Origin: Candidatus Kaftiobacterium secundum
GTDB lineage: Bacteria > Sysuimicrobiota > Sysuimicrobiia > Sysuimicrobiales > Kaftiobacteriaceae
Assembly (NCBI GenBank): GCA_031459765.1
Contig: JAVKHY010000001.1
Span: 221,701-285,700 of the forward strand
Length of the DNA stretch: 64,000 nt
Direction: 5' to 3'
Positions within the stretch are counted from its first letter, which is position 1, and every line of letters starts with the position of its first letter. Positions 18,181-58,148 of the stretch are shown piece by piece. The position numbers and the translations under genes were made by a program. Under the pieces are notes generated by a model that saw only the letters and a list, made by a program, of their open reading frames with translations, had not been told where the DNA came from and did not search any database.

Positions 18181-20517
18181 TCAGGCCCGGCGCTTCTCGA
18201 GATTGCCGAACCGGCTGTGCTCCTTGTGGAAGAACAGCTCCACCTGCCCGATGGGGCCGTTGCGGTGCTTGGCGATGATGATCTCGGCGATGTTCTTCTT
18301 CTCGGTCTCCGCATTGTAGTAGTCGTCGCGGTAGATGAACAGCACCAGGTCGGCCACCTGCTCCAGTTCCCCGCTCTCCCGGAGATGGGAGAGCATCGGC
18401 CGACGGCTGCCCGTCAGCTCCACCGCACGGCTGAGCTGGGAGATGGCCAGGAGCGGGATATCGAGCTCCTTGGCCAGCGACTTCAGCGAGCGGGCGATCT
18501 CCGAGATCTCCTGCGTGCGGTTCTCCGTGCGCTTGTAGGACTGGATCATCTGCAGGTAGTCCACCACGATCAGCCCCAGGCCGTGCTCCGCCTTGAGTTT
18601 GCGCGCCTTGGCCCGCATCTCGATGACGGAGATGTTGGCCGAATCGTCGATGAACACCGGCGCCTCGGAGAGGCGGCCCATGGCCCGGGCCAGTTTCGGC
18701 CAGTCCGAGTCGGCCAGGAATCCGGTGCGCAGCTTGCTGCCGTCCACCTCCGCCTCGGCGCAGAGGAAGCGCTGGACCAGCTGCTCCTTGGAGGTTTCCA
18801 GGCTGAAGATGGCGCAGGGGATCCGGTGGTGGATGGCGGCGTGCGCGGCGATGTTCAGGGCGAAGGTGGTGTTGTGGACGCAGACGTCGCCGGCAATGAA
18901 GTTGTGCGTCCCGGGGACCGTGAGATCGTACACCTGGAAGTCGCCGGTATAGTCTATGTCGGTGACGGCATCCCACAGGATGTCTGAGGCGGGCAGCAGA
19001 CGCCCCTGATCGTATCTGGCCCAGGTCCGCAGCCGTTCCCAGCCGAGCATCCCGATCTCCCGGAACAGCAGGCGCGCATGGTCGCCGGTCAGCGTCAACA
19101 CCGTCCCCTCGGTGGTGGCCGCGATCCCGAAACGCAGCAACAGATGGCGCACCTGCTGCGCCGTGCGCGCGCCGGGGAAGGTCGCGCGCACCCGCACCTC
19201 CGGCTCGGTCTCGACCACGCTCAGGCAGGCCAGCAGGCGGGAGAGAAAGAGCGCCAGTTTCTCCCGGGTCAGCGTGAAGACGATGGGGGGCACGGCCCGC
19301 CCGTCGCCCGCTCGAGCCAGGACGGGGTACCGCGCCAGCAGTCCGCCCACGACGTCGGGGACGGCGCCGCCCTGCACCGGAGCGATCACCTCCCCCGCCG
19401 GCGCGGCGCGCTCCCGCGGCCCGGGACGTGTCGCCGTGCGGATCGCCTCGCCGACGGCGACGGCGTCGGCGTAGTCGGCGGCCAGCGCCGGCACGGCCGG
19501 CATCGTCCCCGCGGTGAGGTAGGCCAGGAGCTTCACTTCGTACGCCGGGAGGTCGAGGGTCCCGAAGACCGGCAGGCGCGCGGGAACGGCGATCAGTGCG
19601 CCGACGCCGAGCTCGGCCAGGCGCCGCCAGCCCTGCGGGGTGAGGAAGGGATGGGACAGCGTGGTCTCGACCTCGCGGCCGGAAGCGGTGCGCACGCGGT
19701 AGACGGGTTTGATTCCGTCGTCGACGAATCGCGCCGGTTCCACGCGCCGCAGCCTGCCCTCCCCGTCCAGGCTCCACAGCACCGTCCGGGCGCGCCCGAC
19801 CACCTCCTGGATTGAGAACACCTCCCCGGTCTGCGCGTCCACGATCTCGGTGTCGTACTTCAGGCACTTCCCCATGGCTGGCCGCGCCGCGACGATGACG
19901 AGGTCCGCGGGCTGCAGACCGCTGGTCAGCTGGTCCAGGTCGGTGAACCCGGTGGGAACGCCCGTGACGGTGCCCTTGTCCTGGTAGCGCCGGTCGATCC
20001 GCTCGAAGCTCTCCTTGAGGATCTCGCGGATGGGCATGAACTCCTGGAGCATGCGGCGGTTGGCGATGCTGAAGACCAGCTTCTCCGCCTGGTCGACCAG
20101 GATCTCCACATCCTGCGCCGCCTCGTAGCCCATGTGGGCGATCTGGGTGCCGGCGCTGATCAGCTGCCGGAGCATGGACTTCTGAAGGACGATGCGCGCG
20201 TAGTATTCCACGTTGGCCGCGGTGGGTACCGTATTCAGCAGCGAGGTGACATAGGAGGCGCCGCCCACGTCATCCAGCTGGCCCTTGTCCCGCAACCGGT
20301 CGGTGACGGTGATCAGATCGACCGGCTCCCCGCGTTCGAACAGATCGGTGATCGCTTCAAAGATCCGGCGGTGCGCGTCGCGGTAGAAGTCCTCGGCGCG
20401 GAGGAGCTCCACGACCCGGGCGATCGCGTCCCGATCCAACAGCATCGACCCCAGCACGCCCTGCTCCGCGTCCAGGTTTTGCGGCGGCACTCTCTCCAGG
20501 GAAACGCTGAGCGACAC
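18181..20517 (-). CDS. dnaB: Replicative DNA helicase DnaB precursor containing a 332-aa intein (spliced product ~446 aa)
   Basis: PPQNLDAEQGVLG, ARPAMGK/TT, DYLQ, LSQLSR, LRESG, KHRNGP; SD GGAGGA. Confidence 0.97.
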   Translation of the reverse strand: MSLSVSLERVPPQNLDAEQGVLGSMLLDRDAIARVVELLRAEDFYRDAHRRIFEAITDLFERGEPVDLITVTDRLRDKGQLDDVGGASYVTSLLNTVPTAANVEYYARIVLQKSMLRQLISAGTQIAHMGYEAAQDVEILVDQAEKLVFSIANRRMLQEFMPIREILKESFERIDRRYQDKGTVTGVPTGFTDLDQLTSGLQPADLVIVAARPAMGKCLKYDTEIVDAQTGEVFSIQEVVGRARTVLWSLDGEGRLRRVEPARFVDDGIKPVYRVRTASGREVETTLSHPFLTPQGWRRLAELGVGALIAVPARLPVFGTLDLPAYEVKLLAYLTAGTMPAVPALAADYADAVAVGEAIRTATRPGPRERAAPAGEVIAPVQGGAVPDVVGGLLARYPVLARAGDGRAVPPIVFTLTREKLALFLSRLLACLSVVETEPEVRVRATFPGARTAQQVRHLLLRFGIAATTEGTVLTLTGDHARLLFREIGMLGWERLRTWARYDQGRLLPASDILWDAVTDIDYTGDFQVYDLTVPGTHNFIAGDVCVHNTTFALNIAAHAAIHHRIPCAIFSLETSKEQLVQRFLCAEAEVDGSKLRTGFLADSDWPKLARAMGRLSEAPVFIDDSANISVIEMRAKARKLKAEHGLGLIVVDYLQMIQSYKRTENRTQEISEIARSLKSLAKELDIPLLAISQLSRAVELTGSRRPMLSHLRESGELEQVADLVLFIYRDDYYNAETEKKNIAEIIIAKHRNGPIGQVELFFHKEHSRFGNLEKRRA
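18871..19866 (-). mobile_element. Intein in the DnaB Walker A motif, with degenerate LAGLIDADG endonuclease
   Basis: GK|CLKYDT...TLSHPF (block B TxxH)...VYDLTVPGTHNF..VHN|TTF; Cys1, His-Asn end, Thr+1. Confidence 0.95.
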
Positions 20518-20549
20518 GGACCCGTCCTCCTCGCCGGTGACCCTCTGCG

Positions 20550-20578
20550 AGCATAGCGAACATACGTTCGCCTGTCAA
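20550..20578 (-). promoter_or_regulatory. Sigma70-type dnaB promoter with LexA (SOS) box in the spacer
   Basis: TTGACA-17 nt-TATGCT on minus strand; CGAACATACGTTCG at 20557-20570. Confidence 0.85.
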
Positions 20579-20623
20579 GCCTGCCCCCGCAGCCGATCGG
20601 GAGATGGAGTTCAGGACAGCCCC

Positions 20624-20752
20624 TGTGGGTCACCTTGTGGAGGGCTGTGCACAACTTCGGAGGACGGTGGGGACATCTGCGGATCCCCTGGGGAGAGACG
20701 GCTGTTTTTGCGTGGACGGCCCGGAAGCGGGGTGTGGATAAGCTGGGGAGAC
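20624..20752. promoter_or_regulatory. Co-oriented DnaA-box-like array between lonC and dnaB
   Basis: Perfect TGTGGATAA at 20733, TGTGCACAA at 20646, plus degenerate TGNGGA units at 10-12 or 22 bp spacing. Confidence 0.6.
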
Positions 20753-20761
20753 GCTCCGCGT

Positions 20762-22699
20762 TCAGGCCGGCGTTCGGCTGTGGGCGCGGTACCTGGACGG
20801 GAAGAGGTGAGGGAGAGCATCCTCCACGGTGGCCACGAAGACCACCTCGATCCCGCGCACACCGGCCGGGACGTCGTTACGGTTTTCCTCGGGGAGGACG
20901 ACCTTGCGCATCCCGGCCTGCCGCGCGCCGTAGATCTTCTCCGGAATGCCGCCGACCTGTTTGACCTTCCCCTGGATCGAGATCTCCCCCGTCACGGCCA
21001 CGTCCTGGCGCACGGGCACCCTCTGGATGGCGCTGAGCATGGCCAGGACCACGGCCAGCCCGGCGCTGGGACCGTCGATCAGCCCCCCGCCGACGACGTT
21101 GACGTGGATGTCGTAATTGCCGACGTCGATGCCGGCAATCCTGCGGATGACCGAGGCCGCGTTGAACACCGAGTCCTTGGCCATCGTGCCCGCCGTCTCG
21201 TTGAACCGAATCGTTCCGCGCTGCCGCTTGCCGACCGGGAAGGCGACGGCCTCGATCTCGATCAGCGATCCCACGTACTGCGTCACACCCAGGGCGAAGA
21301 CCTTGCCGACCTCAGGCACGTCGGAGGCCTTGGTGGGCACGGTCGCCGTCAGCCGCCCGCTGCGCACCACCTCCAGCAGATCGCGGCGCGTGATCCGGGG
21401 ATGCCCCCGGCCACGACGGCGATACAGCGCCACGCCGTAGGCGTCGGCCAGGAGGTTGACGGCCTTGCGGCCCTCCACCGTGTACTCGCTGATGGTCTCC
21501 GGCACGCCCGCCTCCAGTTCCACCCCGAGGCGCCGCGCTGCCTGGCGCACAATCTTCTGCACGTCCTCCTGGGAGAGGGGATCGAAGAACACCTCGGCGC
21601 AGCGGGAGCGCAGGGTGGGGCTGATCTCCTCCGGCTCCTTGGTCGTGGCGCCGATGAGCAGGAAATCGGCCGGCGCCCCTTCGGTGAACAGGCGCTTGAT
21701 GTACGCCGGCAGTTGCGGGTTGGTGGGATCGTAGTAACTGGACTCGAAGAAGACGCGCTTGTCCTCCAGCACCTTCAGCAGTTTCGCCTGCAGCACGGCG
21801 TCCAGTTCGCCGATCTCGTCGATGAACAGGACCCCGCCGTGGGCCCGGGTCACCAGCCCGAGTTTCGGTTCGGGGATGCCCAGCTCGGCGAACTCCCGGC
21901 GGCTGCCCTGGTAGATGGGATCGTGCACCGAACCCAGCAGCGGATTGGTGGCTTCGCGGGCGTCCCAGCGCAGGGTGGAGGCGTCCACCTCGATGAAGGG
22001 CGCCTGCGGCCCGAAGGGGCTCTGGGGCAGGCGCTTGGCCTCCTCGAGCACCAGGCGCGCCACCGTCGTCTTGCCGACGCCGGGCGGCCCGTAGAGGATG
22101 ACGTGCTGCGGAATGGGCACGGCCAGTTTGGCCAGCAGCGCCCGGATGGCGCGCTCCTGGCCCACGACCTGGGAGAGTTTCCTCGGCCGCAGGGCTTCCA
22201 GCGCCGTGCGGGCCAGACGGACCTCCTCCAGCCGCTGCAACTCCTCGAGCTTGGCCCGTGTGCTCTCCGTCTCCGGCCCCAGCGCGTCCTGCATCACCTG
22301 CATCCGGATGGCGCGGAGGTACTCGTCCTGCCGCTCTTTCATCCGGTCCTGCACCCGGCGCTCGATCTCGTCCTCGATGGACTTGCGCGCCATGAGGTCG
22401 GCGATGCGTTCCTGCAGATCCTCCAGGATGGCCGGGATCTCCGCCTCGCGCGGCACGGCGTTGAGGTTCGGATCGTCGAAGACCAGGCGCTGCAGCGCCA
22501 GGACCCGGCGTCCCAGTTGCGGGCTGTTCAACATGGCGCGGGCGCCGACGCGTTCCGCGCGCTTGCTGAGGCGCTCCTGCCCGTACAGGCTGCTCAGGAC
22601 GCCGGCCAGGGCGGCCGCCTTGCGCCGCAGCACCTCCCGTTCGCTGACGCGCCCGGTGGGATTGATCGGCCGGATGGCCTTCGCCTGCCGGACCCTCAT
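20762..22699 (-). CDS. lonC: Lon-family ATP-dependent protease, LonC/LonB-like (Firmicutes sporulation-associated type)
   Basis: YGPPGVGKT, GGVLFIDEIGE, IDGPSAG catalytic Ser, GGIPEK catalytic Lys; position between rplI and dnaB. Confidence 0.85.
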   Translation of the reverse strand: MRVRQAKAIRPINPTGRVSEREVLRRKAAALAGVLSSLYGQERLSKRAERVGARAMLNSPQLGRRVLALQRLVFDDPNLNAVPREAEIPAILEDLQERIADLMARKSIEDEIERRVQDRMKERQDEYLRAIRMQVMQDALGPETESTRAKLEELQRLEEVRLARTALEALRPRKLSQVVGQERAIRALLAKLAVPIPQHVILYGPPGVGKTTVARLVLEEAKRLPQSPFGPQAPFIEVDASTLRWDAREATNPLLGSVHDPIYQGSRREFAELGIPEPKLGLVTRAHGGVLFIDEIGELDAVLQAKLLKVLEDKRVFFESSYYDPTNPQLPAYIKRLFTEGAPADFLLIGATTKEPEEISPTLRSRCAEVFFDPLSQEDVQKIVRQAARRLGVELEAGVPETISEYTVEGRKAVNLLADAYGVALYRRRGRGHPRITRRDLLEVVRSGRLTATVPTKASDVPEVGKVFALGVTQYVGSLIEIEAVAFPVGKRQRGTIRFNETAGTMAKDSVFNAASVIRRIAGIDVGNYDIHVNVVGGGLIDGPSAGLAVVLAMLSAIQRVPVRQDVAVTGEISIQGKVKQVGGIPEKIYGARQAGMRKVVLPEENRNDVPAGVRGIEVVFVATVEDALPHLFPSRYRAHSRTPA

Positions 22700-27223: not shown

Positions 27224-30200
27224 TCAGCGGATGAGGTGGGCGACCTGGACCTTGTTGCCGCCGGAGCGCTTGGCCGTGTACTGGGCGCGGTCCACGGCGT
27301 CGACCAGCGCGTCCACCCCCTCGCCGTCTTCCGGCATGGCGGCCACGCCCACGCTCAGCGTCACCGTGGTCACCACGTTTTCCCCGAGCAGAAAGGGATA
27401 GGCTTCCACGGCCCGGCGCAGACGCTCGGCGACCTCGAAGGCGGTGTCCTTGGAGGTGTTGGGCAGGACGATCATGAACTCGTCGCCGCCGTAGCGCGCC
27501 ACCAGATCGGCGGTGCGGCTCCCCTTGCGCAGGAGATCGGCCACGGTGCGCAGCACCTCATCCCCCTGCTGGTGGCCGTAGGTGTCATTGTAGCGTTTGA
27601 AGTTGTCGATCTCCAGCATGATCAGGGCCAGCGGCTGCCCGTCGCGGCGGCAGCGCTCCAGGGTGCGTTCCATCGCCTCGTGCAGGTAGCGGTGGTTGTA
27701 CAGTTCGGTGAGCCCGTCCGTGATCGCCATGTGCTTGGTCTGCTCGAAGAGGCGGGCGTTCTGGATGGCTACGGTCGCATACCCGGCCAGGGCGGTGAGG
27801 ATGCCCAGGTCGCGGGGACCGAAGGCGCCCCGGCGGGTGCTCTCGATATTGAACACGCCGATGACCCGTCCTTCGCCGATCAGCGGGACGGCGATCTCGG
27901 AGGCGACCCGGTCGTTGATCCCGACGTAGCGCGGGTCCTGGCGCACGTCGGCGACGATCTCGGCCTTCCCCGTGCGCTGGACCCACCCCGTGATCCCCTT
28001 CCCGGACGGAATCCGATAGCCGTGGAACCCCGCGGGGTAGCCGTAGGTGGCCTCCACGACGAGGTCGCCGGTGCGGTCGTCGGTGAGAAGGATCGCTCCA
28101 TACTCGTAGCCGAAGGCGCGGCAGGGGACCTGGATCAGGTTGTCCAGCACCGTTTCGACCTCCAGGGAACTGCTGATCGTCTTCGCCGCCTCGTAGAGCA
28201 CGCTGAGCTCGTCCCGGGCCTGCTGCGCCTCCTCGTAGAGCGTCGCGTTGCGCAGGGCGATGGACAGCTGGCGGGCCAGCGTCTCCAGCAGGGCCAGATC
28301 GCTGTCCGTGAGCGGCCGGTCGGCGCGCGCCTCGATGTTCAGGACGCCGATCACGGCGTCGTCGCTGACGATCGGCACCGCCGCCTGGGATCGCACCGTC
28401 TCATCGGCGGGGATGTACTCGCGTTCGCGGGTGACATCGGCAACGAGAATCGGCTTCCCCGTGCGCGCCACCCGGCCGATCACGCCCTTGGTGATGTGGA
28501 GGCGCTCGTGCACCTGGGCGTAGCCCACCTGGGCCGCCAGCCTCAGGTACTCCCCCTCGCGACGGTAGATGCTGACGTGGGTGTACCCGAAGGTGGCGGC
28601 CACCTCGGCCACGATGCGCCGCACCAGCTCTTCCAGATGCAGGGTCCCGGAGAGGGTGCTCATCAACCGGTTGAGCAGATCCACCTCCGCCGCGCGCCGC
28701 TGGATCTGGGCGAACAGCGAGGCGTTGTTCACCGCGCTGGCGGCCTGGCTGGCGATGGCCCGGGCCAGGAGCAGGTCGTCCTCGGTATAGGGCCGGACGC
28801 GGTCGTGGAAGAAGACGATGGCGCCGATCTGCTCCCCGCGGTACAGCAACGGTAGAAAGGCCAGGGTGCGCACCGGAGCCAGCATCTCGGCCAGCGCCCG
28901 GCATTCTCCCGAGAACAGCCGCTCCTGCAGCATCTGCATCCCCGGGTGGCTGCGCAGGTCGTCGATGACCTGGACCTGGCCGAAGTCGACCGGCAGCGGC
29001 GTCCCCGCCGGCGGCGCGGCCCGCCGCATCAGGGCGGCGAACTCCGGCGGGAATCCTTCCGCGTAGACGGCCGCCACCCCGCCCTGGGGGGCCCGGACGA
29101 AGACCGCGCAGCGGTCGACCTCCAGGACCTGGCCCGCCTCCTCCATGACGGCGCGGACCAGCGTCTCTATGTCCAGGGTGCCGGCGAAGGCCGCGGACAG
29201 CCGCTGCAGAGTGGTCAGCCGCTCGATGTTGCGGCGGCTGGCCTCAAACAGACGGGTGTTCTCGATGGCCGTGGCCACCTGTCCGGCGATGGCTTCCAGC
29301 AGGCGCAGATCGCGCTCGGAGTAGGCGTAAAAGGTGTAGCTCTGGACGGAGATCAGGCCGATGGTCTGCTCGCCCTTGATCACCGGCACGAACATCAGCG
29401 AGGCGCTGCGTTTCTCCTCCCGCCCTACGCGTTCAAAGGTGTCGGGCTGGTTCATCTCCTCGGGCGTACGGTTGATCAGGACGGGCCGGCGGCCCTTGAG
29501 GATCTCGCCCATGGCCCGCCCGTGATCGTAGGGCTGGCGTGGGAAGCGCTGTCCGGAATCCACCAGGAAGTCAAAGTAGAGCCGTGCCGTCTCCGTGTCG
29601 TAGATCGCCACGTAGAAGGCGTCCGCAGACATGGCCCGGCTGATCTCCCGGTACAGGGTCTCGTACAACTCGGCGAGATTCAGGGTCATCGCTGCGCGGC
29701 CGATGCGTTCCACGATCTGCAGCTGGCGGTGGGACTGCTCCCGGGTCGTGGACAGCATCAGGATGTAGCCCACCACCAGCAGTGGCGCGGTCAGGATCGC
29801 CGCCCCGGCCGGCAGGGCGTGAAGATAGATCAGGGCCAGCATCAGACCCAGGGTGGCGAAGGCCAGGCTGTTCAGCAACTCCCAGGCGATGTTGGCGCGG
29901 AAGACGGCCAGAAAGGAGGTCGCGCCGCGCATCGCCACCATGCCGCTGACGAAGAGGCTGGTGGCGAGGACGTAGCAGAAGATCGCGGCCAGGAAGGCCG
30001 CCCAGAAGACGACATCGATGCGGCCGGAAAAGAGGGGAGCCCGGAGGACGGCGCCTGTGGGCGCGATGGCATGGAAGACGAGGCCGGCCAGCAGCACGGA
30101 CAGGATGTACTGTCCGCTGTTGAACACCGTATTGAGGTAGGGACGCCGGTGGAGCAGGCCGTTGCCCACCACGACCCCGGCGGCCATGATCAGCGCCGCG

Positions 30201-30415
30201 TAAACCGGGCCCACGATCAGCAGCGCGGCGGAGGCCACGACCGGCCCGGCCGACTGGAAGCCGCCGCGGGGAAGCGGCACCATCAGCCACTCCGCGGCCA
30301 CGGCCATGATCGTGAAGATGGCGACGAGCGCCGGCGGCGGCGGAAGGGTGCCGGCCAGGAAGGCAAGGAGCACCGCCCACCCCGCCACCGCGACGCTCCA
30401 GGCGTAGAGCATCAC
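27224..30415 (-). CDS. Membrane-anchored multi-GAF diguanylate cyclase
   Basis: N-terminal TM bundle, four GAF-like repeats, TDGLTELYN, RTAD I-site, RYGGDEF. Confidence 0.92.
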   Translation of the reverse strand: MMLYAWSVAVAGWAVLLAFLAGTLPPPPALVAIFTIMAVAAEWLMVPLPRGGFQSAGPVVASAALLIVGPVYAALIMAAGVVVGNGLLHRRPYLNTVFNSGQYILSVLLAGLVFHAIAPTGAVLRAPLFSGRIDVVFWAAFLAAIFCYVLATSLFVSGMVAMRGATSFLAVFRANIAWELLNSLAFATLGLMLALIYLHALPAGAAILTAPLLVVGYILMLSTTREQSHRQLQIVERIGRAAMTLNLAELYETLYREISRAMSADAFYVAIYDTETARLYFDFLVDSGQRFPRQPYDHGRAMGEILKGRRPVLINRTPEEMNQPDTFERVGREEKRSASLMFVPVIKGEQTIGLISVQSYTFYAYSERDLRLLEAIAGQVATAIENTRLFEASRRNIERLTTLQRLSAAFAGTLDIETLVRAVMEEAGQVLEVDRCAVFVRAPQGGVAAVYAEGFPPEFAALMRRAAPPAGTPLPVDFGQVQVIDDLRSHPGMQMLQERLFSGECRALAEMLAPVRTLAFLPLLYRGEQIGAIVFFHDRVRPYTEDDLLLARAIASQAASAVNNASLFAQIQRRAAEVDLLNRLMSTLSGTLHLEELVRRIVAEVAATFGYTHVSIYRREGEYLRLAAQVGYAQVHERLHITKGVIGRVARTGKPILVADVTREREYIPADETVRSQAAVPIVSDDAVIGVLNIEARADRPLTDSDLALLETLARQLSIALRNATLYEEAQQARDELSVLYEAAKTISSSLEVETVLDNLIQVPCRAFGYEYGAILLTDDRTGDLVVEATYGYPAGFHGYRIPSGKGITGWVQRTGKAEIVADVRQDPRYVGINDRVASEIAVPLIGEGRVIGVFNIESTRRGAFGPRDLGILTALAGYATVAIQNARLFEQTKHMAITDGLTELYNHRYLHEAMERTLERCRRDGQPLALIMLEIDNFKRYNDTYGHQQGDEVLRTVADLLRKGSRTADLVARYGGDEFMIVLPNTSKDTAFEVAERLRRAVEAYPFLLGENVVTTVTLSVGVAAMPEDGEGVDALVDAVDRAQYTAKRSGGNKVQVAHLIR

Positions 30416-32167: not shown

Positions 32168-32171
<4 letters not shown>
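30666..32171 (-). CDS. Fused membrane (MFS-like)/spermidine synthase-like SAM-fold protein
   Basis: N-terminal TMs; [34 protein letters not shown]. Confidence 0.85.
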
Positions 32172-34783
<2,612 letters not shown>

Positions 34784-34789
34784 GGTCGT

Positions 34790-35731
34790 TTACGTCCTCA
34801 CCCGCTCCTTTCGCAGCCGGCCCAGCTCCTCCACCAGCTCCCGCTCGCGCCTGGTAAGGTTCTTGGGCAGGACGACCTTGACACGCACCAGCTGGTCCCC
34901 GCGACCGCCCTCCCGGCGCGGCATGCCCAGACCGCGGAGACGAAAGATCTGCCCCGGCTGCGTCTCGGGAGGGACCGTCATCTCCACGGGGCCCTCCAGC
35001 GTGGGCACCTCGATCGTTGCGCCCAGGAGGGCCTCGGTCAGGGCGACCGGGACCTCGGTGATCAGGGCGTCGCCCTGCCGCTCGAACCGGGGATCCGGAC
35101 GGACCTGGACCGTCAGGTAGAGATCCTCCCCGTCCAGGGCGCCGGGCAACCGGATGCGCTGGCCGCTGCGCACACCCCGCGGGATGGAGACGTCCAGGCG
35201 GCGTGTCGTTCCGTCCATCCGCACGGTGACCGACTTCTGTGCGCCGCGAAAGGCTTCTTCCAGGGTCACCTCGATCGTCGCCGCGGGCTCGGGCGCCCCG
35301 GCCGGTTGGGTGGCGGAAACACGCCGGCCGCGCCGGGCCGCACCCACCGGGCCGCCGCCGAAGAACTGCTGGAAGAAATCGCTGAATCCGCCCAGGCCGC
35401 CCAGCAGATCCCTCAGATCTTCGGGGATATCGTAGGTCACCGTCCATCCGCCGGGCGGCCGCCCCCAGGGTGCCGCGCCGCCGAACATCGTCTGCCAGTC
35501 CATCCCGCCGCGCTGGTAGACCTCGTACATCTGGTCGTAGCGCGCGCGCTTCTGCGGGTCGCCCAGCACCTGGTAGGCCTCGTTGATCTCTTTGAAGCGC
35601 TCCTCGGCGCCCTTGGTCTTGTTGATGTCGGGGTGGTACTGGCGGGCCAGCTTCCGGTACGCGGCGCTGATCGCCTTCTGATCGCTGCCGCGGTCCACGC
35701 CGAGGATCTTGTAGTAGTCCTTGAACTCCAT
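34790..35731 (-). CDS. dnaJ: J-domain co-chaperone lacking the Zn finger (class B DnaJ/CbpA-like)
   Basis: KDYYKILGV, HPD, C-terminal DnaJ_C; no CxxCxGxG repeats. Confidence 0.9.
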   Translation of the reverse strand: MEFKDYYKILGVDRGSDQKAISAAYRKLARQYHPDINKTKGAEERFKEINEAYQVLGDPQKRARYDQMYEVYQRGGMDWQTMFGGAAPWGRPPGGWTVTYDIPEDLRDLLGGLGGFSDFFQQFFGGGPVGAARRGRRVSATQPAGAPEPAATIEVTLEEAFRGAQKSVTVRMDGTTRRLDVSIPRGVRSGQRIRLPGALDGEDLYLTVQVRPDPRFERQGDALITEVPVALTEALLGATIEVPTLEGPVEMTVPPETQPGQIFRLRGLGMPRREGGRGDQLVRVKVVLPKNLTRRERELVEELGRLRKERVRT

Positions 35732-35752
35732 CGCCCCGCCCGGCTCCCCGAT

Positions 35753-36289
35753 CTACCTGGCCACCCGCACGCGCGCGGGGCGGAGGACCTCCCCGTGCCA
35801 CAGGTAGCCGCGCTGCAGCTCCTCCACCACGGTGTCCGGCGGCGCCTCCTGGTCCAGGGCGATGTCCACCGCCTCGTGGAGGCGCGGGTCGAAGGTCTTG
35901 CCCCGCGCCTCCATGGGCTCCACGCCCATGGTCTTCAGGACCTCCAGGACCTGCCGGTGGGTCATGCGGATCCCTTCCAGGATCGCCTGCGGATCCGCCG
36001 TCGTCCCGTGTTCCAGGGCGCGCTCGAGGTTGTCCACCACGGTCAGGATCACGCCCAGCAACTGGGCGCGTACGCCCTGGACGGCATCCTCGCGCTGGCG
36101 GGCGGCCTGCTTCTTGTAGTTCTCCAGGTCCGCCGCCGCATGGAGAAACTGCTGCCAGTTGCGCTCCGCCTCTTCCCTGGCCCGCGCCAGTTCCGCCTGG
36201 AGCTCCTCCACACTGACTGTGGGGGCGGCCGGTTCCTCAGGTCCCGCCGGACGCGGCTCCTCGGCCGGCCGCCCGCTGTGCTCGTCCAT
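35753..36289 (-). CDS. grpE: Nucleotide exchange factor GrpE
   Basis: ADLENYKK, FDPRLHEAV, GY...VLRPARV. Confidence 0.95.
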   Translation of the reverse strand: MDEHSGRPAEEPRPAGPEEPAAPTVSVEELQAELARAREEAERNWQQFLHAAADLENYKKQAARQREDAVQGVRAQLLGVILTVVDNLERALEHGTTADPQAILEGIRMTHRQVLEVLKTMGVEPMEARGKTFDPRLHEAVDIALDQEAPPDTVVEELQRGYLWHGEVLRPARVRVAR

Positions 36290-36292
36290 CGC

Positions 36293-38209
<1,917 letters not shown>

Positions 38210-38272
38210 ATCAGATGGCTCCTCTCACGTTTCAGCCACTCCCCTGAGGCGGCGCGGGGGAGGTCGGCGGGC

Positions 38273-38722
38273 CTAGCCGCCGACCTCCACCTTGACCGTC
38301 TTGGGCTTGGCCCGCTCGCTCTTCGGCACCCGGATCTCCAGGATGCCGTTCTTGTAGGTGGCCTTCGCCGCCTCGCCCTGCACTCCCGTAGGCAGCGACA
38401 GCTGGCGCACGAAGGAGCCGTAGCGCAGCTCGCGCCGGTAGTAGTTGCGCTTCTTCTCCTCCTGCTCGCTCTTCGCCTCGCCCTTGATCGTCAGAGTGTC
38501 CTCCGTGACCGAGACGTCCACCTGGTTCGGGTCGACGCCGGGCAGCTCGGCCCGCACGACGAAGTCGTGGTCGGTCTCATAGGCTTCGATCGCCGGCTGC
38601 CAGACCACGGGCACCCCGCCGCGGCGCTCCGGGCGCCGGGTGAAGAACTCCTCGAACAGCTTGTCCATCGACTCCCGCAGGGACGCGAGATCGTCGAAGG
38701 GATCCCACCGAATCAGGCTCAT
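38273..38722 (-). CDS. Hsp20/alpha-crystallin small heat-shock protein
   Basis: RWDPF, AELPGV, YGSFVR, ATYKNGILEI. Confidence 0.95.
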   Translation of the reverse strand: MSLIRWDPFDDLASLRESMDKLFEEFFTRRPERRGGVPVVWQPAIEAYETDHDFVVRAELPGVDPNQVDVSVTEDTLTIKGEAKSEQEEKKRNYYRRELRYGSFVRQLSLPTGVQGEAAKATYKNGILEIRVPKSERAKPKTVKVEVGG

Positions 38723-42781: not shown

Positions 42782-43240
42782 CTATTGGGTGCGGGAGGTT
42801 GAGAACAGGGGGAGGGAGTCGAGGTCGTCCAGTTCAAAGGAGGGCTCGAGGACCTCCTGGTCGAGCGCCTCCATGGCGGCCAGGGCCGCCTCCGTGTTGC
42901 GCTCGCGGGGGAGATGCTCGACCGAGCTCCACCGGTAGGCGTTGAGGAGCGCGCGCGTCTGCAGGTACAGGCCGACCAGCTCGCCCGGGACCTCCGCGCG
43001 GCCGGCGATCTGATCGACCACGGCGGGCTCGTCGCAGAAGACGCGGATCCGCCGCGCCCCCGTCCCGCGCGCCTTCCATACCCCATGAAGCAACGCCCGA
43101 TACGCCCCCTCGGCGCGGGATCCCGCACGGACAGTGCGGCGCGTCATGCGCACAGGCTGCCCCGCGGAGCGGATCACGACCCCGATCCCGGCCTTGCCGT
43201 CGCGGAACGCCGCGCTCGCGAACACCTCCAGCGGCCTCAC
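42782..43240 (-). CDS. RNase HI-fold protein with degenerate catalytic residues
   Basis: AGIGVVI, AY.AL..G, RIRVFCD, HLPRERN.EA; GTGA overlap with upstream gene. Confidence 0.7.
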   Translation of the reverse strand: MRPLEVFASAAFRDGKAGIGVVIRSAGQPVRMTRRTVRAGSRAEGAYRALLHGVWKARGTGARRIRVFCDEPAVVDQIAGRAEVPGELVGLYLQTRALLNAYRWSSVEHLPRERNTEAALAAMEALDQEVLEPSFELDDLDSLPLFSTSRTQ

Positions 43241-43443
43241 AGCTGCAGCGGCACCTCCAGGGCCACGACCACCAGGACCAGCAAGCCGAGCAACAGGAGC
43301 TTTGCCCCGATCAGCCTCCGGTCGTCAGCAAAACGTTCCCAGGCACCGCGCGCCGCGAATCCCCACCGCGGCTGGGCGCGGCCGCGGCTCGGACGCGTTC
43401 CGGGGAGGGCCACCGCGAAGGCAGACAGGGCACGGAAGCTCAT
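43237..43443 (-). CDS. Small single-pass membrane protein coupled to lexA
   Basis: 68 aa; ATGA overlap with lexA stop and GTGA overlap with next gene; C-terminal TM helix. Confidence 0.65.
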   Translation of the reverse strand: MSFRALSAFAVALPGTRPSRGRAQPRWGFAARGAWERFADDRRLIGAKLLLLGLLVLVVVALEVPLQL

Positions 43444-44069
43444 GCCTGCCCCCCGGCGTAGCGGCGCAACAAACCCACCACGACCCCGATGATCTCGAAT
43501 TCCCCGCCGATCGGCCCATACCGCGGATTCTCGGGCATCAAGTAGGGTTGCGGTCCGTCGTAGCGCAGCCGCTTGACCGTCGCCTCCTCCCCCAGCAGGG
43601 CCACGACGATCTCGCCGGCCCGGGCGGTCGGCTGCGAGCGGACGATCACCAGGTCGCCGTCGTAGATCCCGGCATTGATCATCGAGTCTCCCCGCACGGT
43701 GAGCAGGAAGCAGTTGTCGTCCTGCCAGCCCACCATCCGGCGGGGAACGGGGATCATCTCCTCCACGTTCTCCTCCGCCAGCACGGGGAGCCCCGCCGAG
43801 ATGCGGCCGACCAGCGGTAGGTGGGCCACGTCTCCACCGCCGGGAACCATCCGGCGGTCCAGGACTTCCAGCACGCGCATGCGGTCGCCGGCACGCCTGA
43901 TATAGCCCTTGCGCTCGAGGGCGGTCAGATGCTGGTGGACCGTCGAGGGCGAGCGCATTCCCAGGGCGCTGCCGATCTCGCGGACGGAGGGCACGATGCC
44001 GCTGCGCCGGATGGACGCCGCGATGTGCTCGAGGACCTGCCGCTGTCGGTCGGTAAGTGGTGCGGCCAT
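43440..44069 (-). CDS. lexA: SOS repressor LexA
   Basis: PSVREIG..LG..SPSTVH, SAG cleavage site, GDSM (Ser), ATVK (Lys). Confidence 0.97.
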   Translation of the reverse strand: MAAPLTDRQRQVLEHIAASIRRSGIVPSVREIGSALGMRSPSTVHQHLTALERKGYIRRAGDRMRVLEVLDRRMVPGGGDVAHLPLVGRISAGLPVLAEENVEEMIPVPRRMVGWQDDNCFLLTVRGDSMINAGIYDGDLVIVRSQPTARAGEIVVALLGEEATVKRLRYDGPQPYLMPENPRYGPIGGEFEIIGVVVGLLRRYAGGQA

Positions 44070-44096: not shown

Positions 44097-44165
44097 CGAA
44101 CATATGTACGAATATCAAGGGCCGGGAAAGGCGGCCAGAGACAGACCATGGCGAACAAACGTACG
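44097..44165. promoter_or_regulatory. Two LexA boxes upstream of lexA
   Basis: CGAACATATGTACG 44097-44110 (between TTGATA and a TAT-starting -10 on minus strand) and CGAACAAACGTACG 44152-44165. Confidence 0.85.
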
Positions 44166-44225: not shown

Positions 44226-45164
44226 TCAGGAGGGGGCCAGGCAGCGCAGCAGGACGGGGAGGTCTACGTTCCCTCCGCTGACGATCGCCACAGCCGTCGG
44301 GCCGGTAAGACCGCCGTCCAGCGCACAGGCGACGCTCGTCGCGCCCGAGGGCTCGGCCAGAAGATGTCCCTCCAGGAGGAGCCGCCGCATCGCCTCCAGG
44401 ATCCTCTCGTCGAGGACGGGACGGAACTCATCGACGTACCGCGAGGTGACCTCCCAGGTGAGGCGCCCCGGCGCCAGGACGCGAAGCCCGTCGGCGATCG
44501 TCTCCGCCTTCTCCAGGGCCACCGGGTGCCCTACCTTGCGGGAACGGGCGAAGCGATCGGCGCCGGCCGGTTCTGCACCTATGACCCTGGCCTGAGGCTT
44601 CAGCGACTTGACTGCGGCCGCGACGCCGGCAACGAGACCGCCTCCGCTCACCGGGACCACCACCGCCTCGACCTCCGGACACTGCTCCACAATCTCCAGA
44701 CCGACCGTCCCCTGGCCGGCAACGATGAAGGGATCGTCGTACGGAGGTACATAGTGGAGGCCCCGGCGCTCCGACAGCTCCCGAGCAAGCGCGATCCGCT
44801 CGTCGGAGTAGCGACCCCGGCGGATCAACTCCGCGCCGTAGCCGGTGATCGCCTCGGCCTTTGTCGCGGCCACGTTCTCCGGGACCACGACCACCGCGTG
44901 CAGACCGAGCGTCCTGGCGACGAACGCCACGGCCTGGCCGTGGTTGCCGGAGGAGGCTGTGATGACCCCGGCGGCGCAGGCCTCGCGGTGGGCGAGGACA
45001 TAGTTGAACGCCCCCCGCGGCTTGAACGATCCGGTGACCTGGAGGTTCTCCAGCTTCAGCTGCGGACCGCCCGGCAGGGGATGGATGGGCGTCCGCCGTA
45101 CGTAGGGCGCGATCCGCTCGCGCGCCGCGCGGATGTCGTCGAGGGTCACCGGCCCCGCATCCAC
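44226..45164 (-). CDS. Threonine/serine dehydratase (catabolic, PLP); start approximate
   Basis: KLENLQVTGSFKPRGA, ASSGNHGQ, GQGTVGLEI, SGGN. Confidence 0.9.
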   Translation of the reverse strand: MDAGPVTLDDIRAARERIAPYVRRTPIHPLPGGPQLKLENLQVTGSFKPRGAFNYVLAHREACAAGVITASSGNHGQAVAFVARTLGLHAVVVVPENVAATKAEAITGYGAELIRRGRYSDERIALARELSERRGLHYVPPYDDPFIVAGQGTVGLEIVEQCPEVEAVVVPVSGGGLVAGVAAAVKSLKPQARVIGAEPAGADRFARSRKVGHPVALEKAETIADGLRVLAPGRLTWEVTSRYVDEFRPVLDERILEAMRRLLLEGHLLAEPSGATSVACALDGGLTGPTAVAIVSGGNVDLPVLLRCLAPS

Positions 45165-45192
45165 GGGGTGCAGGTCAGCCGGAAGAGGATCT

Positions 45193-46653
45193 TCATCCGC
45201 CTCTCCAGCGCAGGTCGGGCTGGCGCGCCGCGCGTACCTCATCCAGCCTCCGGACCGGCGTGGTGTGCGGCGCGTCGTGGACGATCTGAGGGTTCTCCTG
45301 GGCCTCGCGGTCGATGGCCCGCATCGCCTCGATGAACTCATCCAGGGTGCGCTTGCTCTCCGTCTCCGTGGGCTCGATCATGATCGCCTCGTCCACGATG
45401 AGCGGGAAGTAGATCGTCGGGGCGTGGAAGCCGTAGTCCAGCAGGCGCTTGGCCATGTCGCGGGTGGTGACGCCGTACTGCTTCTTCTGCCGGGTACCGG
45501 AGAGGACGAACTCGTGCTTGCACAACCGATCGTAGGGCAGGTCGAAGCGGTCGCGCAGCCGGGCCAGGACGTAGTTGGCGTTGAGCACCGCGGTCTCCGC
45601 CACCTGGCGCAGGCCGTCGGCGCCCATGGAGCGGATGTACGCATAGGCCCGGATCAGGTTTCCGAAGTTCCCGTAGAAGGCGCGGATCTTCCCGATAGAC
45701 TGCGGACGGTCATAGTCCAGCCGGAAGCGGTCGCCCTCCTTCTCCACCACCGGGACGGGGAGGAAGGGCACCAGGTGCGCCTTCACCCCCACCGCCCCCG
45801 CCCCCGGGCCGCCCCCGCCGTGGGGGGTGGAGAAGGTTTTGTGCAGGTTCATGTGCATCACGTCGAACCCCTGGTCGCCGGGCCGGGTGACGCCGAGGAT
45901 CGCGTTGAAGTTGGCGCCGTCCAGGTACATCTGCCCGCCGCGGCCGTGGACGATCTCCTCCACCTCGACGATGTGCTCTTCGAACAACCCCAGGGTGTTG
46001 GGATTCGTGAGCATGATCGCGGCCACGGAGGAGTCCATCGCCTCGCGCAGCGCCTGGACGTCCAGGTTCCCGCGGGCGTCCGATTTGACGGTGATTACCT
46101 GGTAGCCGGCCATGGCGGCGGTGGCGGGGTTGGTCCCGTGGGCCGAGTCGGGCACGATGACCTTCGTCCGGCGCTCGCCCCGGGCCTCGAAGTAGGCACG
46201 GATCATCAGGATTCCGGTGAGTTCTCCGTGGGCGCCGGCCGCGGGCTGAAAGGTCACCCGGTCCATGCCGCTGATCTCGGCCAGCGCCTGCTCCAGTTCC
46301 CAGATGAGCTCCAGCGCCCCCTGCGCGTCCTCCGGCATCGTGTAGGGATGGAGACGGCTGAACCCCGGGAGGCGCGCCGCATCCTCGTGGATCTTCGGAT
46401 TGTACTTCATGGTGCACGAACCCAGCGGGTAGAACCCTTCGTCGATGCTGAAGTTCCGGTGGGACAGCCGCGTGTAGTGGCGCACGACGTCCAGCTCGCT
46501 GACCTCCGGCAACCCCGGCGGCACCTGGCGGATCTGGTCGGCGGGGAGCAGGGCGTTCAGGGGCCGGCGCGGGACATCGGGTTCGGGGTAGGACGCGCCG
46601 ATGCGGCCGGGGGTGCTCAGCTCAAAGATCACCGGGAAGTCCCGCCCCTTCAT
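45193..46653 (-). CDS. gcvPB: Glycine dehydrogenase (decarboxylating) subunit 2
   Basis: [30 protein letters not shown]. Confidence 0.96.
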
Positions 46654-48038
46654 CGGATCCCCTCCAGCACCGCCACCAGCCGGTCGATCTGCGCCCGCGT
46701 CCGCTGTTCGGTGACGCAGACCAGCCAGCCGTCCGCCAGCTCGGGATAGTACCGGCCCAGGGGCAGCCCGCCCAGGATGCCTTCCCGGCGCAGCCGCTGG
46801 TTGACCTCCTCGGGCGGGACGGGCGTGCGGACTACGAACTCGTTGAAGATGGGCCCGTCGAAGGCGAGCCGAAAGCCCGGCAGCGCGCCGATCGCCTCTC
46901 GGGCGTAGGCCGCCTTGTAGAGGTTGAGTTCCGCCACCTTCCGCAGGCCCTGCGGCCCGAGCGCGGCCATGTAGATTCCCGCGGCCAGGGCCAGCAGCGC
47001 CTCGTTGGTGCAGATGTTGCTGGTGGCCTTCTCCCGCCGGATGTGCTGCTCCCGGGTCTGCAGCGTGAGCACGAACCCACGCCGCCCCTCCACATCGACC
47101 GTGGCCCCGACCAGGCGGCCGGGAATGCGCCGCACGTACTCGCGACGCGTGGCCATCATCCCCAGATAGGGACCGCCGAAGTTCAGGTGGTTGCCCAGGG
47201 GCTGCCCTTCACCGGCCACGATATCCGCGCCCCAGATCCCCGGCGGGGTGAGCAACCCCAGGGAAAGCGGCTCGGCCACGGCACAGATCAGAAGCGCCCC
47301 GCGGCGGTGGGCGATCTCGACCAGCGCCCGGCCGTCTTCGAGCAGACCGAAGAAGTTGGGGTGCTGGACGATGACCGCGGCCGTGCGTTCCGACAGGTGC
47401 GCGACGACGGTCTCGCCGTCGGTGCGGCCGTGACGGTGGGGGACCTCGACGACCTGGATCCCCAGGGGCCGGGTGTAGGTCTTCAGAACCTGGCGGTACT
47501 CCGGATGGACGGCGGTCGAGACGATGACCTCGTCCCGCCTGGTCAGGTCTCTGGCCATCACCGCCGCTTCGGCGGTGGCCGAGGCGCCGTCATACATGGA
47601 CGCGTTGGCCACGTCCATCGCCGTCAGCTCGCACAGCATGCTCTGATACTCGTAGATGGCCTGCAGCTCGCCCTGCATCATCTCGGCCTGATAGGGCGTA
47701 TAGGCCGTGAGGAACTCGCCGCGGCCGGCCAGGGCCCAGACCACGCTGGGCACGTAGTGGTCGTAGGCGCCCGCGCCCAGGAAACAGGCCGCGGCGTCGG
47801 CGTGGAGGTTCTTCGCGGCGAGGGCGCCGAGGGCGGTCATGACCTCAGGGTCGCTGAGGGGCGGGGGAAGCCGCAGCGGCGCCCGGAGCCGCACCGCCGC
47901 GGGGATATCGGCAAAGAGCGCCTCCACCGAGGGCACGCCCACGACCCGCAGCATCTCCGCCCGCTCGGCCTCCGTGGCGGGAATGTACTTGTGCTGCGCG
48001 CGGGGCGTCGCCGCCACAGGCTGCGGTTCGGCTTTCAT
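46650..48038 (-). CDS. gcvPA: Glycine dehydrogenase (decarboxylating) subunit 1
   Basis: [34 protein letters not shown]. Confidence 0.96.
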
Positions 48039-48421
48039 CAGGCCTCCTCCCCGATGACTTTCAGATACTGCTCCACGGTCATCAACTTGTCCAGCTCCTT
48101 CGGATCGCTGGGCTCCACCACGATGATCCAGCCTGCTCCGTAGGGATCGCTGTTCACGACCTCCGGGCTGTCCCGCAGCGCGGTGTTAACCTCAACCACG
48201 TTCCCGGAGACGGGGGCGTAGAGGTCCGAGACCGCTTTGACCGACTCGATCACCCCGAAGGGCTGCATGAAGGTCACCACGGCGCCTACCTCGGGGAGTT
48301 CGACGAAGACGACGTCACTGAGTCTGTCCGCGGCAAACTTCGTAATCCCGACGCGCACGCGGTCGCCCTCGACCCTGGCCCACTCGTGCTCACTGCTGTA
48401 CCGCAGGTCCTTGGGATACAT
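48038..48421 (-). CDS. gcvH: Glycine cleavage H protein
   Basis: HEW, IESVKAVSDLY lipoyl-Lys, NSDPYG.GW. Confidence 0.97.
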   Translation of the reverse strand: MYPKDLRYSSEHEWARVEGDRVRVGITKFAADRLSDVVFVELPEVGAVVTFMQPFGVIESVKAVSDLYAPVSGNVVEVNTALRDSPEVVNSDPYGAGWIIVVEPSDPKELDKLMTVEQYLKVIGEEA

Positions 48422-49522
48422 TCACGCGCTCCTTTTGTAGAAGGGAAGTCTGACCACGACGGCCCGCACCGGCTGCCCCCGAACCTCCACGTCGATCTCA
48501 ACTCCGGGCCGGGCGAACTCGGGCGGGACATAGCCCAGGCCGATGCCCTTTTGCACCCAGGGACCGAAGGTGCCGCTGGTCGCCCGGCCGATGGCGCGAC
48601 CTCCGGCCAGCAGGGTGTAGCCACGGCGGGGGATGGCCCGGTCCCGCATCTCGAACCCCACGAGCCTGCGGCGCACACCCTCCTGCTTCTGGCGGAGCAG
48701 GGCTTCCCGTCCAATGAACTCGCCCTTGTCCAGTTTGACCGTCCAGCCCAGGGGCGCTTCCAGCGGCGTGGTGGTTTCGTCGATGTCGTTGCCGTAGAGC
48801 ATCAACGCCGCCTCCAGTCGCAGGGTGTCCCGCGCCCCCAGCCCGACCGGAACCAGCCCCTCCTCCCGCCCGGCGTCCAGGAGGGTCTCCCACAGCCGCG
48901 GCGCCTCATCCCAGGGACAGCCGATCTCGAACCCGTCCTCCCCCGTATAGCCGCTCCGTGAGATAAAGCAGCGCACCCCCGCCACGTCCACCCCTTCGAC
49001 GATGTGGAAGAAGGGCAGATCGGCCGACCCAGGCCGGGTCAGACGGGCCAGGATCGCGGAGGCCCGGGGTCCCTGCAGGGCGAGGAGCGCGATCTCCGCC
49101 GAGCGGTTCCGCACCGCGGCGTTGACCGCGTGCTCGTGGATCCAGGCGAGATCCTTGTCCGTTGTGGCGGCGTTGACCACGAAGAGGAAGCGCCGCTCCC
49201 CCATCCGGAAGACGGTGAGGTCGTCCACGATGCCTCCGGTCGGCAGGCACATGGGACTGTACAGCCCCGCCCCGACCTCCAGGCGGGCGGCGTCGTTGGT
49301 GATGAGCCGCTGCACCGTGTCCAGCGCTCCCGGCCCCTCCACCTCGACCTCGCCCATGTGGGACACATCGAACAGGCCGGCGGCTGTGCGCACCGCCCGG
49401 TGCTCCTCGACGATGCCGGCGTACTGAACCGGCATCTCCCACCCGCCGAACTCGACCAGGCGCGCCCCGCGCCGCAGGTGCGCGGGATACAGGCTGGTCC
49501 GCTTCAGCCCCTCAGCGGCCAT
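48422..49522 (-). CDS. gcvT: Glycine cleavage aminomethyltransferase
   Basis: [36 protein letters not shown]. Confidence 0.97.
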
Positions 49523-50162
49523 AGAGTTCGCGCTCCCTGGCCCGCAGCAGGGCGATCGCCTCCTCGTCGGATGTCTGGGCGAAGTCCTCGTAGAACTGCC
49601 CGACGGCGTAGAACATGACCGGCGTGTAGAGACAGACGACCTCGTCCGCCTCGGCCCGCAGGCTCTCACAGCCCTCCGGCGGGGCCACGGGCACGGCGGC
49701 CACGGTCGCCTCCGGCCGCATCCGCCGCACCGCCCGGAGCGCGGCGATCATCGTCGAGCCGGTGGCGATGCCGTCGTCCACCACGATCGCCACACGTCCG
49801 TCCAGGGCCGGCGGCGGACGGTCTCCGCGATAGGCGGCCAGCCGCCGCCGGATCTCCTCCATCTGGAAGGCGACCTCGTCCTTCAGGTAGTCCTCCGGCA
49901 CCTGCAGCGTCCCGACCAGCGGCGAGTCGTAGTACACGCTGCCGTCCTGCGCCACGGCACCGATCGCCAGTTCCGGATTGTGGGGGGCGCGGAGCTTGCG
50001 CGGGACGACGACGTCCAGCGGCGCCTCTAACGCTTTGGCCACCTCATAGCCGACAACGATCCCGCCGCGCGGGATGGCCAGGACGAAAGGCCGGCGGGAA
50101 CGGTAGCCGTCCAGGGCTGCGGCCAGCGCACGACCAGCCTCCCGGCGGTCGCGGAACGTCAT
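49512..50162 (-). CDS. Type I phosphoribosyltransferase-like protein
   Basis: FRDRREAG, AIPRGG, VVDDGIATGST, AVGQFY. Confidence 0.9.
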   Translation of the reverse strand: MTFRDRREAGRALAAALDGYRSRRPFVLAIPRGGIVVGYEVAKALEAPLDVVVPRKLRAPHNPELAIGAVAQDGSVYYDSPLVGTLQVPEDYLKDEVAFQMEEIRRRLAAYRGDRPPPALDGRVAIVVDDGIATGSTMIAALRAVRRMRPEATVAAVPVAPPEGCESLRAEADEVVCLYTPVMFYAVGQFYEDFAQTSDEEAIALLRARERELYGR

Positions 50163-53579: not shown

Positions 53580-53606
53580 CAAGTGGCACTGATCGGGCCG
53601 CCACTT
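53580..53606. terminator. Hairpin between convergent epimerase and parB genes
   Basis: AAGTGGC...GCCACTT inverted repeat just 3' of the parB stop. Confidence 0.45.
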
Positions 53607-53607
53607 T

Positions 53608-55228: not shown

Positions 55229-55277
55229 TGTTCGCTGTTGTGGTTCGGGATATAGTGGTAGGGTCCTCCGAATGGGA

Positions 55278-57429: not shown

Positions 57430-57460
57430 CGGGGGCCTCCGATCTTGTCGGCAGAACTCC

Positions 57461-57673
57461 TCATCGCGGCACCGGGTCGTAGCCCCCCGGATGCAGGGGG
57501 TGGCACCGCAGCAACCGCCGCAGGGCCAGGTAGCCGCCCTTCAGGGCGCCGTGGCGGGCGATGGCCTCCGCCGCGTACTGCGAGCACGACGGGTAGAAGC
57601 GACACGACGGCGGGAGCAGGGGAGAGATGACTCTCCTGTAGAGGTGAATGAGCACCAGCAGCAGTTGCCTCAT
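57461..57673 (-). CDS. yidD: Membrane protein insertion efficiency factor YidD
   Basis: [25 protein letters not shown]. Confidence 0.95.
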
Positions 57674-57987: not shown

Positions 57988-58006
57988 CCGCCGGAACGTC
58001 GCGCCC

Positions 58007-58141
58007 TCAGATGGCGAGGCGGTGCCGACCCTTGGCTCTCCGACGCTTGAGGACATTCCGCCCGCCGGGAGTGCGCATTCGGGCACGGAATCCGTGCCGC
58101 CGTTGCCGGCGACGAACCTTCGGCTGGTACGTCCCCTTCAC
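58007..58141 (-). CDS. rpmH: 50S ribosomal protein L34 (missing from the supplied ORF track)
   Basis: Translated by hand: [44 protein letters not shown]. Confidence 0.96.
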
Positions 58142-58148
58142 GACCACC

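Follow-up and report, generated by a model that had tools for sequence, protein, structure and literature searches.

SOS regulons usually comprise genes for repair, recombination, translesion synthesis and division arrest, and core genes of the replisome are rarely direct targets of LexA. The dnaB locus of the 64-kb window (the whole stretch of DNA that was analysed) raises the question of whether a replicative helicase can be one of these rare targets: its promoter holds a palindrome of the LexA type between the -35 and -10 hexamers. An initial annotation read this arrangement as apparent direct LexA repression of dnaB, and that reading stands up well, in that both the motif and a layout shared with the autoregulated lexA promoter have the look of a genuine LexA operator. 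If the regulation is real, helicase supply would be damage-regulated across a globally abundant, uncultured phylum of soils and hot springs, which gives a testable handle on fork restart in bacteria that use a DciA-type helicase loader. The elements of the locus are as follows.

18181-20517, minus strand: dnaB, chromosomal replicative helicase precursor of 778 aa (446 aa after splicing), with Pfam domains DnaB, DnaB_C and Intein_splicing
18871-19866, minus strand: 332-aa intein in the DnaB Walker A motif (P-loop), junctions placed by comparison with intein-less relatives
20532-20526, minus strand: ribosome-binding site GAGGAGG, 8 nt before the GTG start, by direct reading
20555-20550, minus strand: -10 hexamer TATGCT, by direct reading and consensus scan
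20557-20570, plus-strand coordinates: putative LexA operator, the palindrome CGAACATACGTTCG, a perfect CGAAC-N4-GTTCG
between TTGACA and TATGCT, minus strand: 17-nt spacer GGCGAACGTATGTTCGC, by direct reading
20578-20573, minus strand: -35 hexamer TTGACA of the dnaB promoter, by direct reading, the sole promoter-like site in 20300-21000
20762-22699, minus strand: gene for a Lon-like AAA+ protease (Pfam Lon_C and AAA), upstream of dnaB and co-oriented with it

The near-consensus TTGACA-17 nt-TATGCT promoter that had been reported ahead of the dnaB GTG is present on the minus strand, and the perfect box said to fill its spacer can be read there directly. The layout is TTGACA-GG-box-C-TATGCT, in which the box (CGAAC-GTAT-GTTCG on the minus strand) fills the spacer, lies 1 nt from the -10 and overlaps the core promoter elements; TATGCT is separated from the GTG (20517) by 32 nt, which include GAGGAGG. 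A consensus scan of 20300-21000 returned exactly one sigma-70-like site, the dnaB promoter, with 10 of 12 matches where 0.0 sites were expected, and detected nothing resembling a terminator between the Lon-like gene and dnaB. Within the 245-nt gap between these two genes the box-bearing promoter is the only promoter-like element, and an Rfam scan of the whole window found no RNA family and thus no known leader or riboswitch at dnaB.

The gene itself encodes the chromosomal DnaB, as judged from its N- and C-terminal domains, its Walker A and B motifs and the conserved rpsF-ssb-rplI neighbourhood. The gene order, ychF, rpsF, ssb, DUF2232, rplI, Lon-like protease and dnaB, is the Firmicutes-like chromosomal setting of a primary replicative helicase. 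Intein-less paralogues 66-68% identical to the window DnaB were found at two other loci, L167 (2878-4257) and L168 (771-2126), in contexts that resemble mobile elements, with overlapping upstream genes of unknown function and, nearby, an 811-aa protein of unknown function and an OLD-like TOPRIM/AAA protein. No LexA box was found at these paralogues. Since they exist at this level of identity in such contexts, some genomes may hold a second DnaB-like helicase. The 66-68% identical DnaB proteins P0077, P0078 and P0084 were considered as basal orthologues that might mark the phylogenetic edge of the box and were rejected as paralogues from a mobile-element-like context without the box.

For the palindrome to be an operator, the organism must have a LexA that can read it. 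Firmicutes and Actinobacteria, B. subtilis included, have CGAAC-N4-GTTCG as their textbook LexA box, and the palindrome at dnaB also fits the Gram-positive (Cheo) LexA box, CGAACRNRYGTTYC. The window contains a lexA gene with two such sites in front of it.

43440-44069, minus strand: lexA, 209 aa, with Pfam LexA_DNA_bind and Peptidase_S24 domains
44118-44090, minus strand: lexA promoter TTGATA-TT-CGTACATATGTTCG-C-TATATG, by direct reading
44152-44165, no strand assigned: distal lexA box CGAACAAACGTACG, some 55 nt farther upstream than the proximal box, 18.9 bits by matrix

The encoded protein has both the DNA-binding domain and the self-cleaving S24 domain, with the Ala-Gly cleavage site, the serine (GDSM) and the lysine (VKRL) aligned to solved LexA structures (PDB chains, E = 3e-34). 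Its promoter has the same layout as that of dnaB, as had been noted at the outset (TTGATA, 2 nt, box, C, TAT), and the reading at 44118-44090 bears this out. The arrangement is general among relatives: the 15 closest lexA loci recovered from metagenomes, whose LexA proteins are 80-89% identical, all have the proximal box in an equivalent promoter layout, and most of them have a distal box-like site about 55 nt upstream. The dnaB motif recurs in lexA's own promoter in the window and throughout these 15 loci. An unusual half-site variant, CGTAC, is common to the lexA boxes and many of the dnaB boxes, as would be expected if one protein reads both. Downstream of lexA by 200 nt lies an RNase H-like (RVT_3) gene (42782-43240, minus strand), which may be co-transcribed, followed by TPR, PhoU-like and PHO4 phosphate-transporter genes.

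The dnaB box is the only perfect CGAAC-N4-GTTCG in the 64-kb window, where 0.11 are expected by chance, and 11 of 100 shuffles contained at least one; taken on its own the perfect box is thus only weakly significant, and the case for an operator therefore rests on specificity and conservation. Looser searches, with one mismatch allowed to CGAAC-N4-GTTCG or GAAC-N4-GTTC, gave counts near chance, and for this reason a matrix trained on lexA promoters was used instead. This matrix was built from the relatives' lexA boxes only, and when it was scanned over the 64-kb window the three best matches were the proximal lexA box (27.5 bits), the dnaB box (23.1 bits) and the distal lexA box (18.9 bits), so that the dnaB box was the top match outside lexA; the next best match in the window scored 12.2 bits. 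Across some 420 kb of related DNA, most of it from the lineage, matches of at least 16 bits were confined to the promoters of dnaB and lexA with a single exception, and a scan of a further 17 kb flanking the window gave no match of at least 16 bits. Canonical SOS genes (recA, uvrA/B, ruvAB and translesion polymerases) were looked for in the window and in its 17-kb flanks, and none is encoded there.

The exception, and the only matrix match outside dnaB and lexA promoters in the 420 kb, is a LexA-type box in Ca. Geohabitans tengchongensis (L007, 172-185), where CGAACAAAAGTTCG is followed by TATATC; DUF2232 and rplI, which come before dnaB in that genome, lie about 115 nt downstream of the box. 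The remainder of the window includes a gene for a 1,063-aa protein with four GAF domains and a C-terminal GGDEF diguanylate cyclase domain (27224-30415, minus strand), and a heat-shock cluster (hsp20, dnaK, grpE, dnaJ and clpB) together with a glycine-cleavage operon (gcvT, gcvH, gcvPA and gcvPB), both on the minus strand within 32168-38722 and 44226-49669. The glycine-cleavage operon fits the reductive glycine pathway that a study of the phylum has reported (PMC11604079).

The conservation of the box was examined at 80 loci from species-representative genomes, obtained with the DnaB N-extein as the query. The lineage set comprises the 29 loci at 70% identity or more (N-extein 70-93% identical; DnaB orthologues 70-94%), which belong to a single uncultured lineage, CSP1-3 or Sysuimicrobiota; two named members of this phylum, Ca. 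Geohabitans tengchongensis and Ca. Fervidifonticultor tertius (PMC11604079), are among them, as are records labelled 'Bacillati bacterium ANGP1' or (mis-)labelled 'Armatimonadota'. The box, as CG[A/T]AC-N4-GTTCG with at most one mismatch, is present in 29/29 of these loci at 46-61 nt before the dnaB start, so that absence from close relatives, which would have told against an operator, was not seen. It follows a TTGAC-like hexamer at the place equivalent to the window -35 by 2-3 nt in most relatives, and it precedes by 0-1 nt, or overlaps, a -10 at the matching offset that reads TAnnnT or TATAAT. Two further relatives, which are intein-less (P0012 and P0024, at six places), also have the box between the -35 and the -10. 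In contrast, none of 51 outgroup loci, which come from other Firmicutes, Streptomyces, Chloroflexota and further groups and do not exceed 60% identity, had a box within 350 nt, and a matrix scan of 50 outgroup loci gave a best score of 5.3 versus 21.7 for the window box.

Within the lineage the footprint is sharply bounded. When the upstream regions are anchored on the box, the columns inside it average 1.62 bits of information, as opposed to 0.17-0.3 on either side, and a MAFFT alignment (A1) of the dnaB upstream regions has the same pattern of a conserved box amid diverged flanks. The -35, the box and the -10 are conserved together as a module, including in relatives that have a different gene upstream, and this co-conservation argues that the module is the working dnaB promoter. 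The promoter-operator layout is ancestral to CSP1-3 / Sysuimicrobiota, or at least general in it. A second palindrome with LexA-type arms surrounds the Shine-Dalgarno sequence in many relatives (L002, L003, L004, L006, L010-L012, L015, L017, L018 and L036) and is absent from the window. It lies 13-21 nt before the dnaB start, has perfect or near-perfect arms (for example CGAAC-GGAG-GTTCG and CGAAC-AGGA-GTTCG) and with its flanks is predicted to form a hairpin of -5.6 to -11.5 kcal/mol; it may serve as another operator, or it may fold in the mRNA and so hide the ribosome-binding site.

We put the probability at about 0.78 that the dnaB palindrome is an operator for the organism's own LexA, set in the spacer of a strong, near-consensus promoter of the sigma-70 type. 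The sequences themselves show the anatomy of the locus, the specificity of the motif, its conservation, the intact cleavage motifs of LexA and the independence from inteins; that LexA binds and represses this promoter, that damage induces it, where basal expression comes from and that DnaA contributes (discussed below) we infer from them. In an undamaged cell a LexA dimer would lie over the spacer between the -35 and -10 hexamers, abutting the -10, and would block RNA polymerase. RecA-stimulated self-cleavage of LexA is the established mechanism by which LexA operators are derepressed, and upon DNA damage it would free this promoter and raise synthesis of the DnaB precursor. The organism has a helicase loader of the DciA type, and the extra DnaB would supply helicase for reloading at collapsed forks. 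Because DnaB is essential, a source of basal expression is needed despite the operator in the core promoter; it could be incomplete repression, read-through from the co-oriented rplI-lon-like genes, or both, read-through being a candidate because no terminator was found.

That dnaB is essential and yet has a perfect operator in its core promoter does count against LexA control, given that a second source of expression must presumably exist, and it opens the way to the alternative that survives best. This holds that LexA binds and contributes little: most dnaB expression would stem from transcripts that read through from rplI-lon, or from a start under DnaA control, and the operator would trim expression or act as a weak roadblock with no marked induction by damage. 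Tight repression is implausible because dnaB is essential, and both the missing terminator between the Lon-like gene and dnaB and a conserved cluster of DnaA boxes upstream are in keeping with a minor role, as is the precedent of M. tuberculosis, whose LexA binds some sites without apparent regulation and whose dnaB induction is partly RecA-dependent (PMC3381160; PMC8151990). The DnaA boxes are the following.

20624-20741, minus strand: DnaA-box cluster upstream of the dnaB promoter, from alignment A1 and box counts
20624-20641, minus strand: conserved block TCCACA-AGG-TGACCCACA, with the AGG invariant in alignment A1
20733-20741, minus strand (the dnaB strand): perfect DnaA box TTATCCACA, the only perfect one in the window

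Degenerate boxes accompany the perfect one in the window, and across the lineage the block in alignment A1 reads TTATCC(A/C)CAG...TCCACA-AGG-nAAnnCACAG. A count over 32 lineage loci, restricted to the gene strand and to boxes with no more than one mismatch, gave 35 in the 330-nt stretches ahead of dnaB; the background rate is 0.005 per 330 nt, and the boxes are enriched about 200-fold. Conservation of the cluster, which was seen at L001-L027 and L066, suggests a second, DnaA-dependent input: DnaA may act on dnaB expression, or the site may titrate DnaA, and the cluster probably adds information on replication status. What weighs against the operator having only a minor part is that the sole promoter-like element in the 245-nt gap is near-consensus and bears the box, and that the module of -35, box and -10 is kept in all relatives, those with a different upstream gene among them. 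We therefore regard a minor role for LexA as unlikely.

The DnaA boxes upstream of dnaB were also considered as oriC itself and rejected, given that the dnaA-dnaN region, four one-mismatch DnaA boxes at 58.2-58.4 kb (58203-58371) and a cumulative GC-skew minimum near 60 kb place oriC about 38 kb away. The origin region (53600-63877, continuing in L171) begins with rpmH-rnpA-yidD-yidC-jag-gidB-parA-parB on the minus strand and goes on to dnaA (59439-60785), dnaN (60961-62070), an S4-like gene, recF (62293-63411) and a DciA-family gene (63395-63877), then gyrB and gyrA. Between the DnaA-box region and dnaA lies a gene for a 265-aa protein with HATPase_c and a faint HTH_IclR match (58632-59429, plus strand), which is unusual for the rpmH-dnaA gap.

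LexA control of dnaB can be extended to a bolder proposition, in which the SOS response of the whole phylum has the replicative helicase among its ancestral core genes, and the dnaB promoter integrates two sensors of replication stress, LexA and, through the box cluster, DnaA. We consider this unlikely. If it were true, making new DnaB would belong to the fork-restart programme of a lineage that uses DciA, and stress-sensitive splicing of the P-loop intein would form a third layer in the members that bear it.

That last point touches on a further alternative, which is close to what the initial annotation had proposed, namely an intein-gated helicase under joint transcriptional and splicing control. 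SOS control would here have evolved together with the P-loop intein, with damage-induced transcription and stress-sensitive splicing forming a two-layer gate on helicase supply. The window intein lends itself to such a role. It is inserted in frame after the GK of Walker A (PAMGK|CLKYD...VCVHN|TTFALN) and has the features of a class 1 intein, with Cys1 (CLKYD), block B TLSH, a C-terminal HN and T at +1; all splicing residues are apparently intact. Pfam finds Intein_splicing and, below threshold only, a LAGLIDADG remnant, pointing to a degenerate endonuclease. DnaB induced in this organism must therefore, on the evidence of the insertion site, splice before it can bind ATP. In addition, most lineage members carry the P-loop intein, and in mycobacteria the splicing of DnaB inteins at this site is conditional and responds to stress (PMC8557812).

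When the exteins were mapped onto each locus, however, the operator was found not to track the intein. Two intein sites were recovered, the P-loop and a second one (LRE|...HN|SGELEQVAD), which is occupied in about one third of the lineage and gives two-intein precursors of about 1,190-1,290 aa; carriers of the second-site intein are L004, L006, L012, L013, L014, L016, L023 and L026. Of these L016 has the second-site intein only, without that of the P-loop, and L019 has no intein. Intein-less DnaB proteins 75-80% identical were traced to contigs (P0012 to L081-83 and P0024 to L084-86), and both have the promoter-operator module. The box is thus present with one intein (as in the window), with two, or with none (L019 and L081-86), and also in L016, and the check for a correlation between box and intein that had been suggested at the start found none. 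The module being equally present in intein-free and intein-bearing dnaB, the correlation is ruled out, and joint evolution of operator and intein is improbable; the idea of the two as one regulatory unit was appealing, is unsupported and has been corrected here. At two loci (L007 and L024) the frame changes between the N- and C-extein matches, possibly through an assembly error or a pseudogene.

It is more improbable still that some regulator besides LexA binds the palindrome and governs both lexA and dnaB. The opening for this is that the assignment of the motif to LexA draws on a single canonical SOS gene, lexA, through its autoregulation, and on resemblance to the known Gram-positive LexA box. 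Against it, the motif is a textbook LexA box that sits in the core promoter of lexA in the window and in the 15 lineage lexA loci, a hallmark of autoregulation, and no other candidate regulator is encoded beside either site. Finally, the notion of a chance palindrome in an AT-rich promoter spacer, to which the 11% of shuffles with a perfect box per window lend something, is effectively refuted by the comparative data, that is, by 29/29 orthologues and two intein-less relatives with the box amid diverged flanks, by its presence in 0/50 outgroups and by the exclusivity of the matrix to lexA and dnaB.

LexA control of dnaB as proposed here has one precedent in the literature searched, that of M. 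tuberculosis. The promoter of its dnaB (Rv0058) has a LexA motif and a weak, sub-threshold ChIP peak, the gene is damage-inducible partly via RecA, and LexA binds some other sites in this organism without apparent regulation (PMC3381160). Lowering both RecA and PafBC leaves M. tuberculosis dnaB inducible (PMC8151990). The remark in the initial annotation that the helicase is not a usual SOS gene is a fair one, but the case is not unprecedented, given the LexA motif at M. tuberculosis dnaB. The two systems are alike in the GAAC-N4-GTTC core in the promoter region, in the intein in the gene and, as far as M. tuberculosis is concerned, in damage induction. They differ in that the M. tuberculosis site was found by motif scan and is weakly bound in ChIP, induction is partly independent of RecA (PafBC) and no phylum-wide conservation is reported, whereas the window box is perfect, lies inside the core promoter, is kept in every orthologue examined and belongs to a different, uncultured phylum. 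Elsewhere, none of 22 Streptomyces dnaB loci has the box, and dnaB of Leptospira is not induced by UV (PMC3789691). The two papers on CSP1-3 that were consulted (one of them PMC11604079) make no mention of SOS targets or inteins.

The P-loop DnaB inteins of mycobacteria (PMC8557812) resemble that of the window in their insertion into Walker A, which leaves the helicase inactive until it is spliced. The window intein differs from them in being longer, at 332 aa with a degenerate endonuclease remnant, and in that the LexA operator here is independent of the intein. For the upstream boxes, similar head-to-tail DnaA-box-like 9-mers, which are intergenic, near a replication gene and tens of kb from oriC, are known from the DBCs of B. 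subtilis and from dnaA and nrdAB of E. coli. Among known DnaA-regulated promoters a cluster directly upstream of a helicase promoter combined with a LexA operator was not found described.

Gram-positive SOS promoters (B. subtilis lexA, recA, dinB, dinC and others) are alike in form, with the same CGAAC-N4-GTTCG operator overlapping the core promoter. B. subtilis lexA is also autoregulated through more than one box. The target is different: dnaC, which encodes the replicative helicase of B. subtilis, is not known to belong to the LexA regulon, and the Firmicutes outgroup dnaB loci retrieved are without the box. The operator type and position at the window dnaB are thus standard for a Gram-positive LexA box and the target gene is unusual. 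What is new here is that target gene, the perfection and position of its putative operator, and the conservation of the arrangement in 29/29 of the species-representative dnaB loci retrieved for the lineage.
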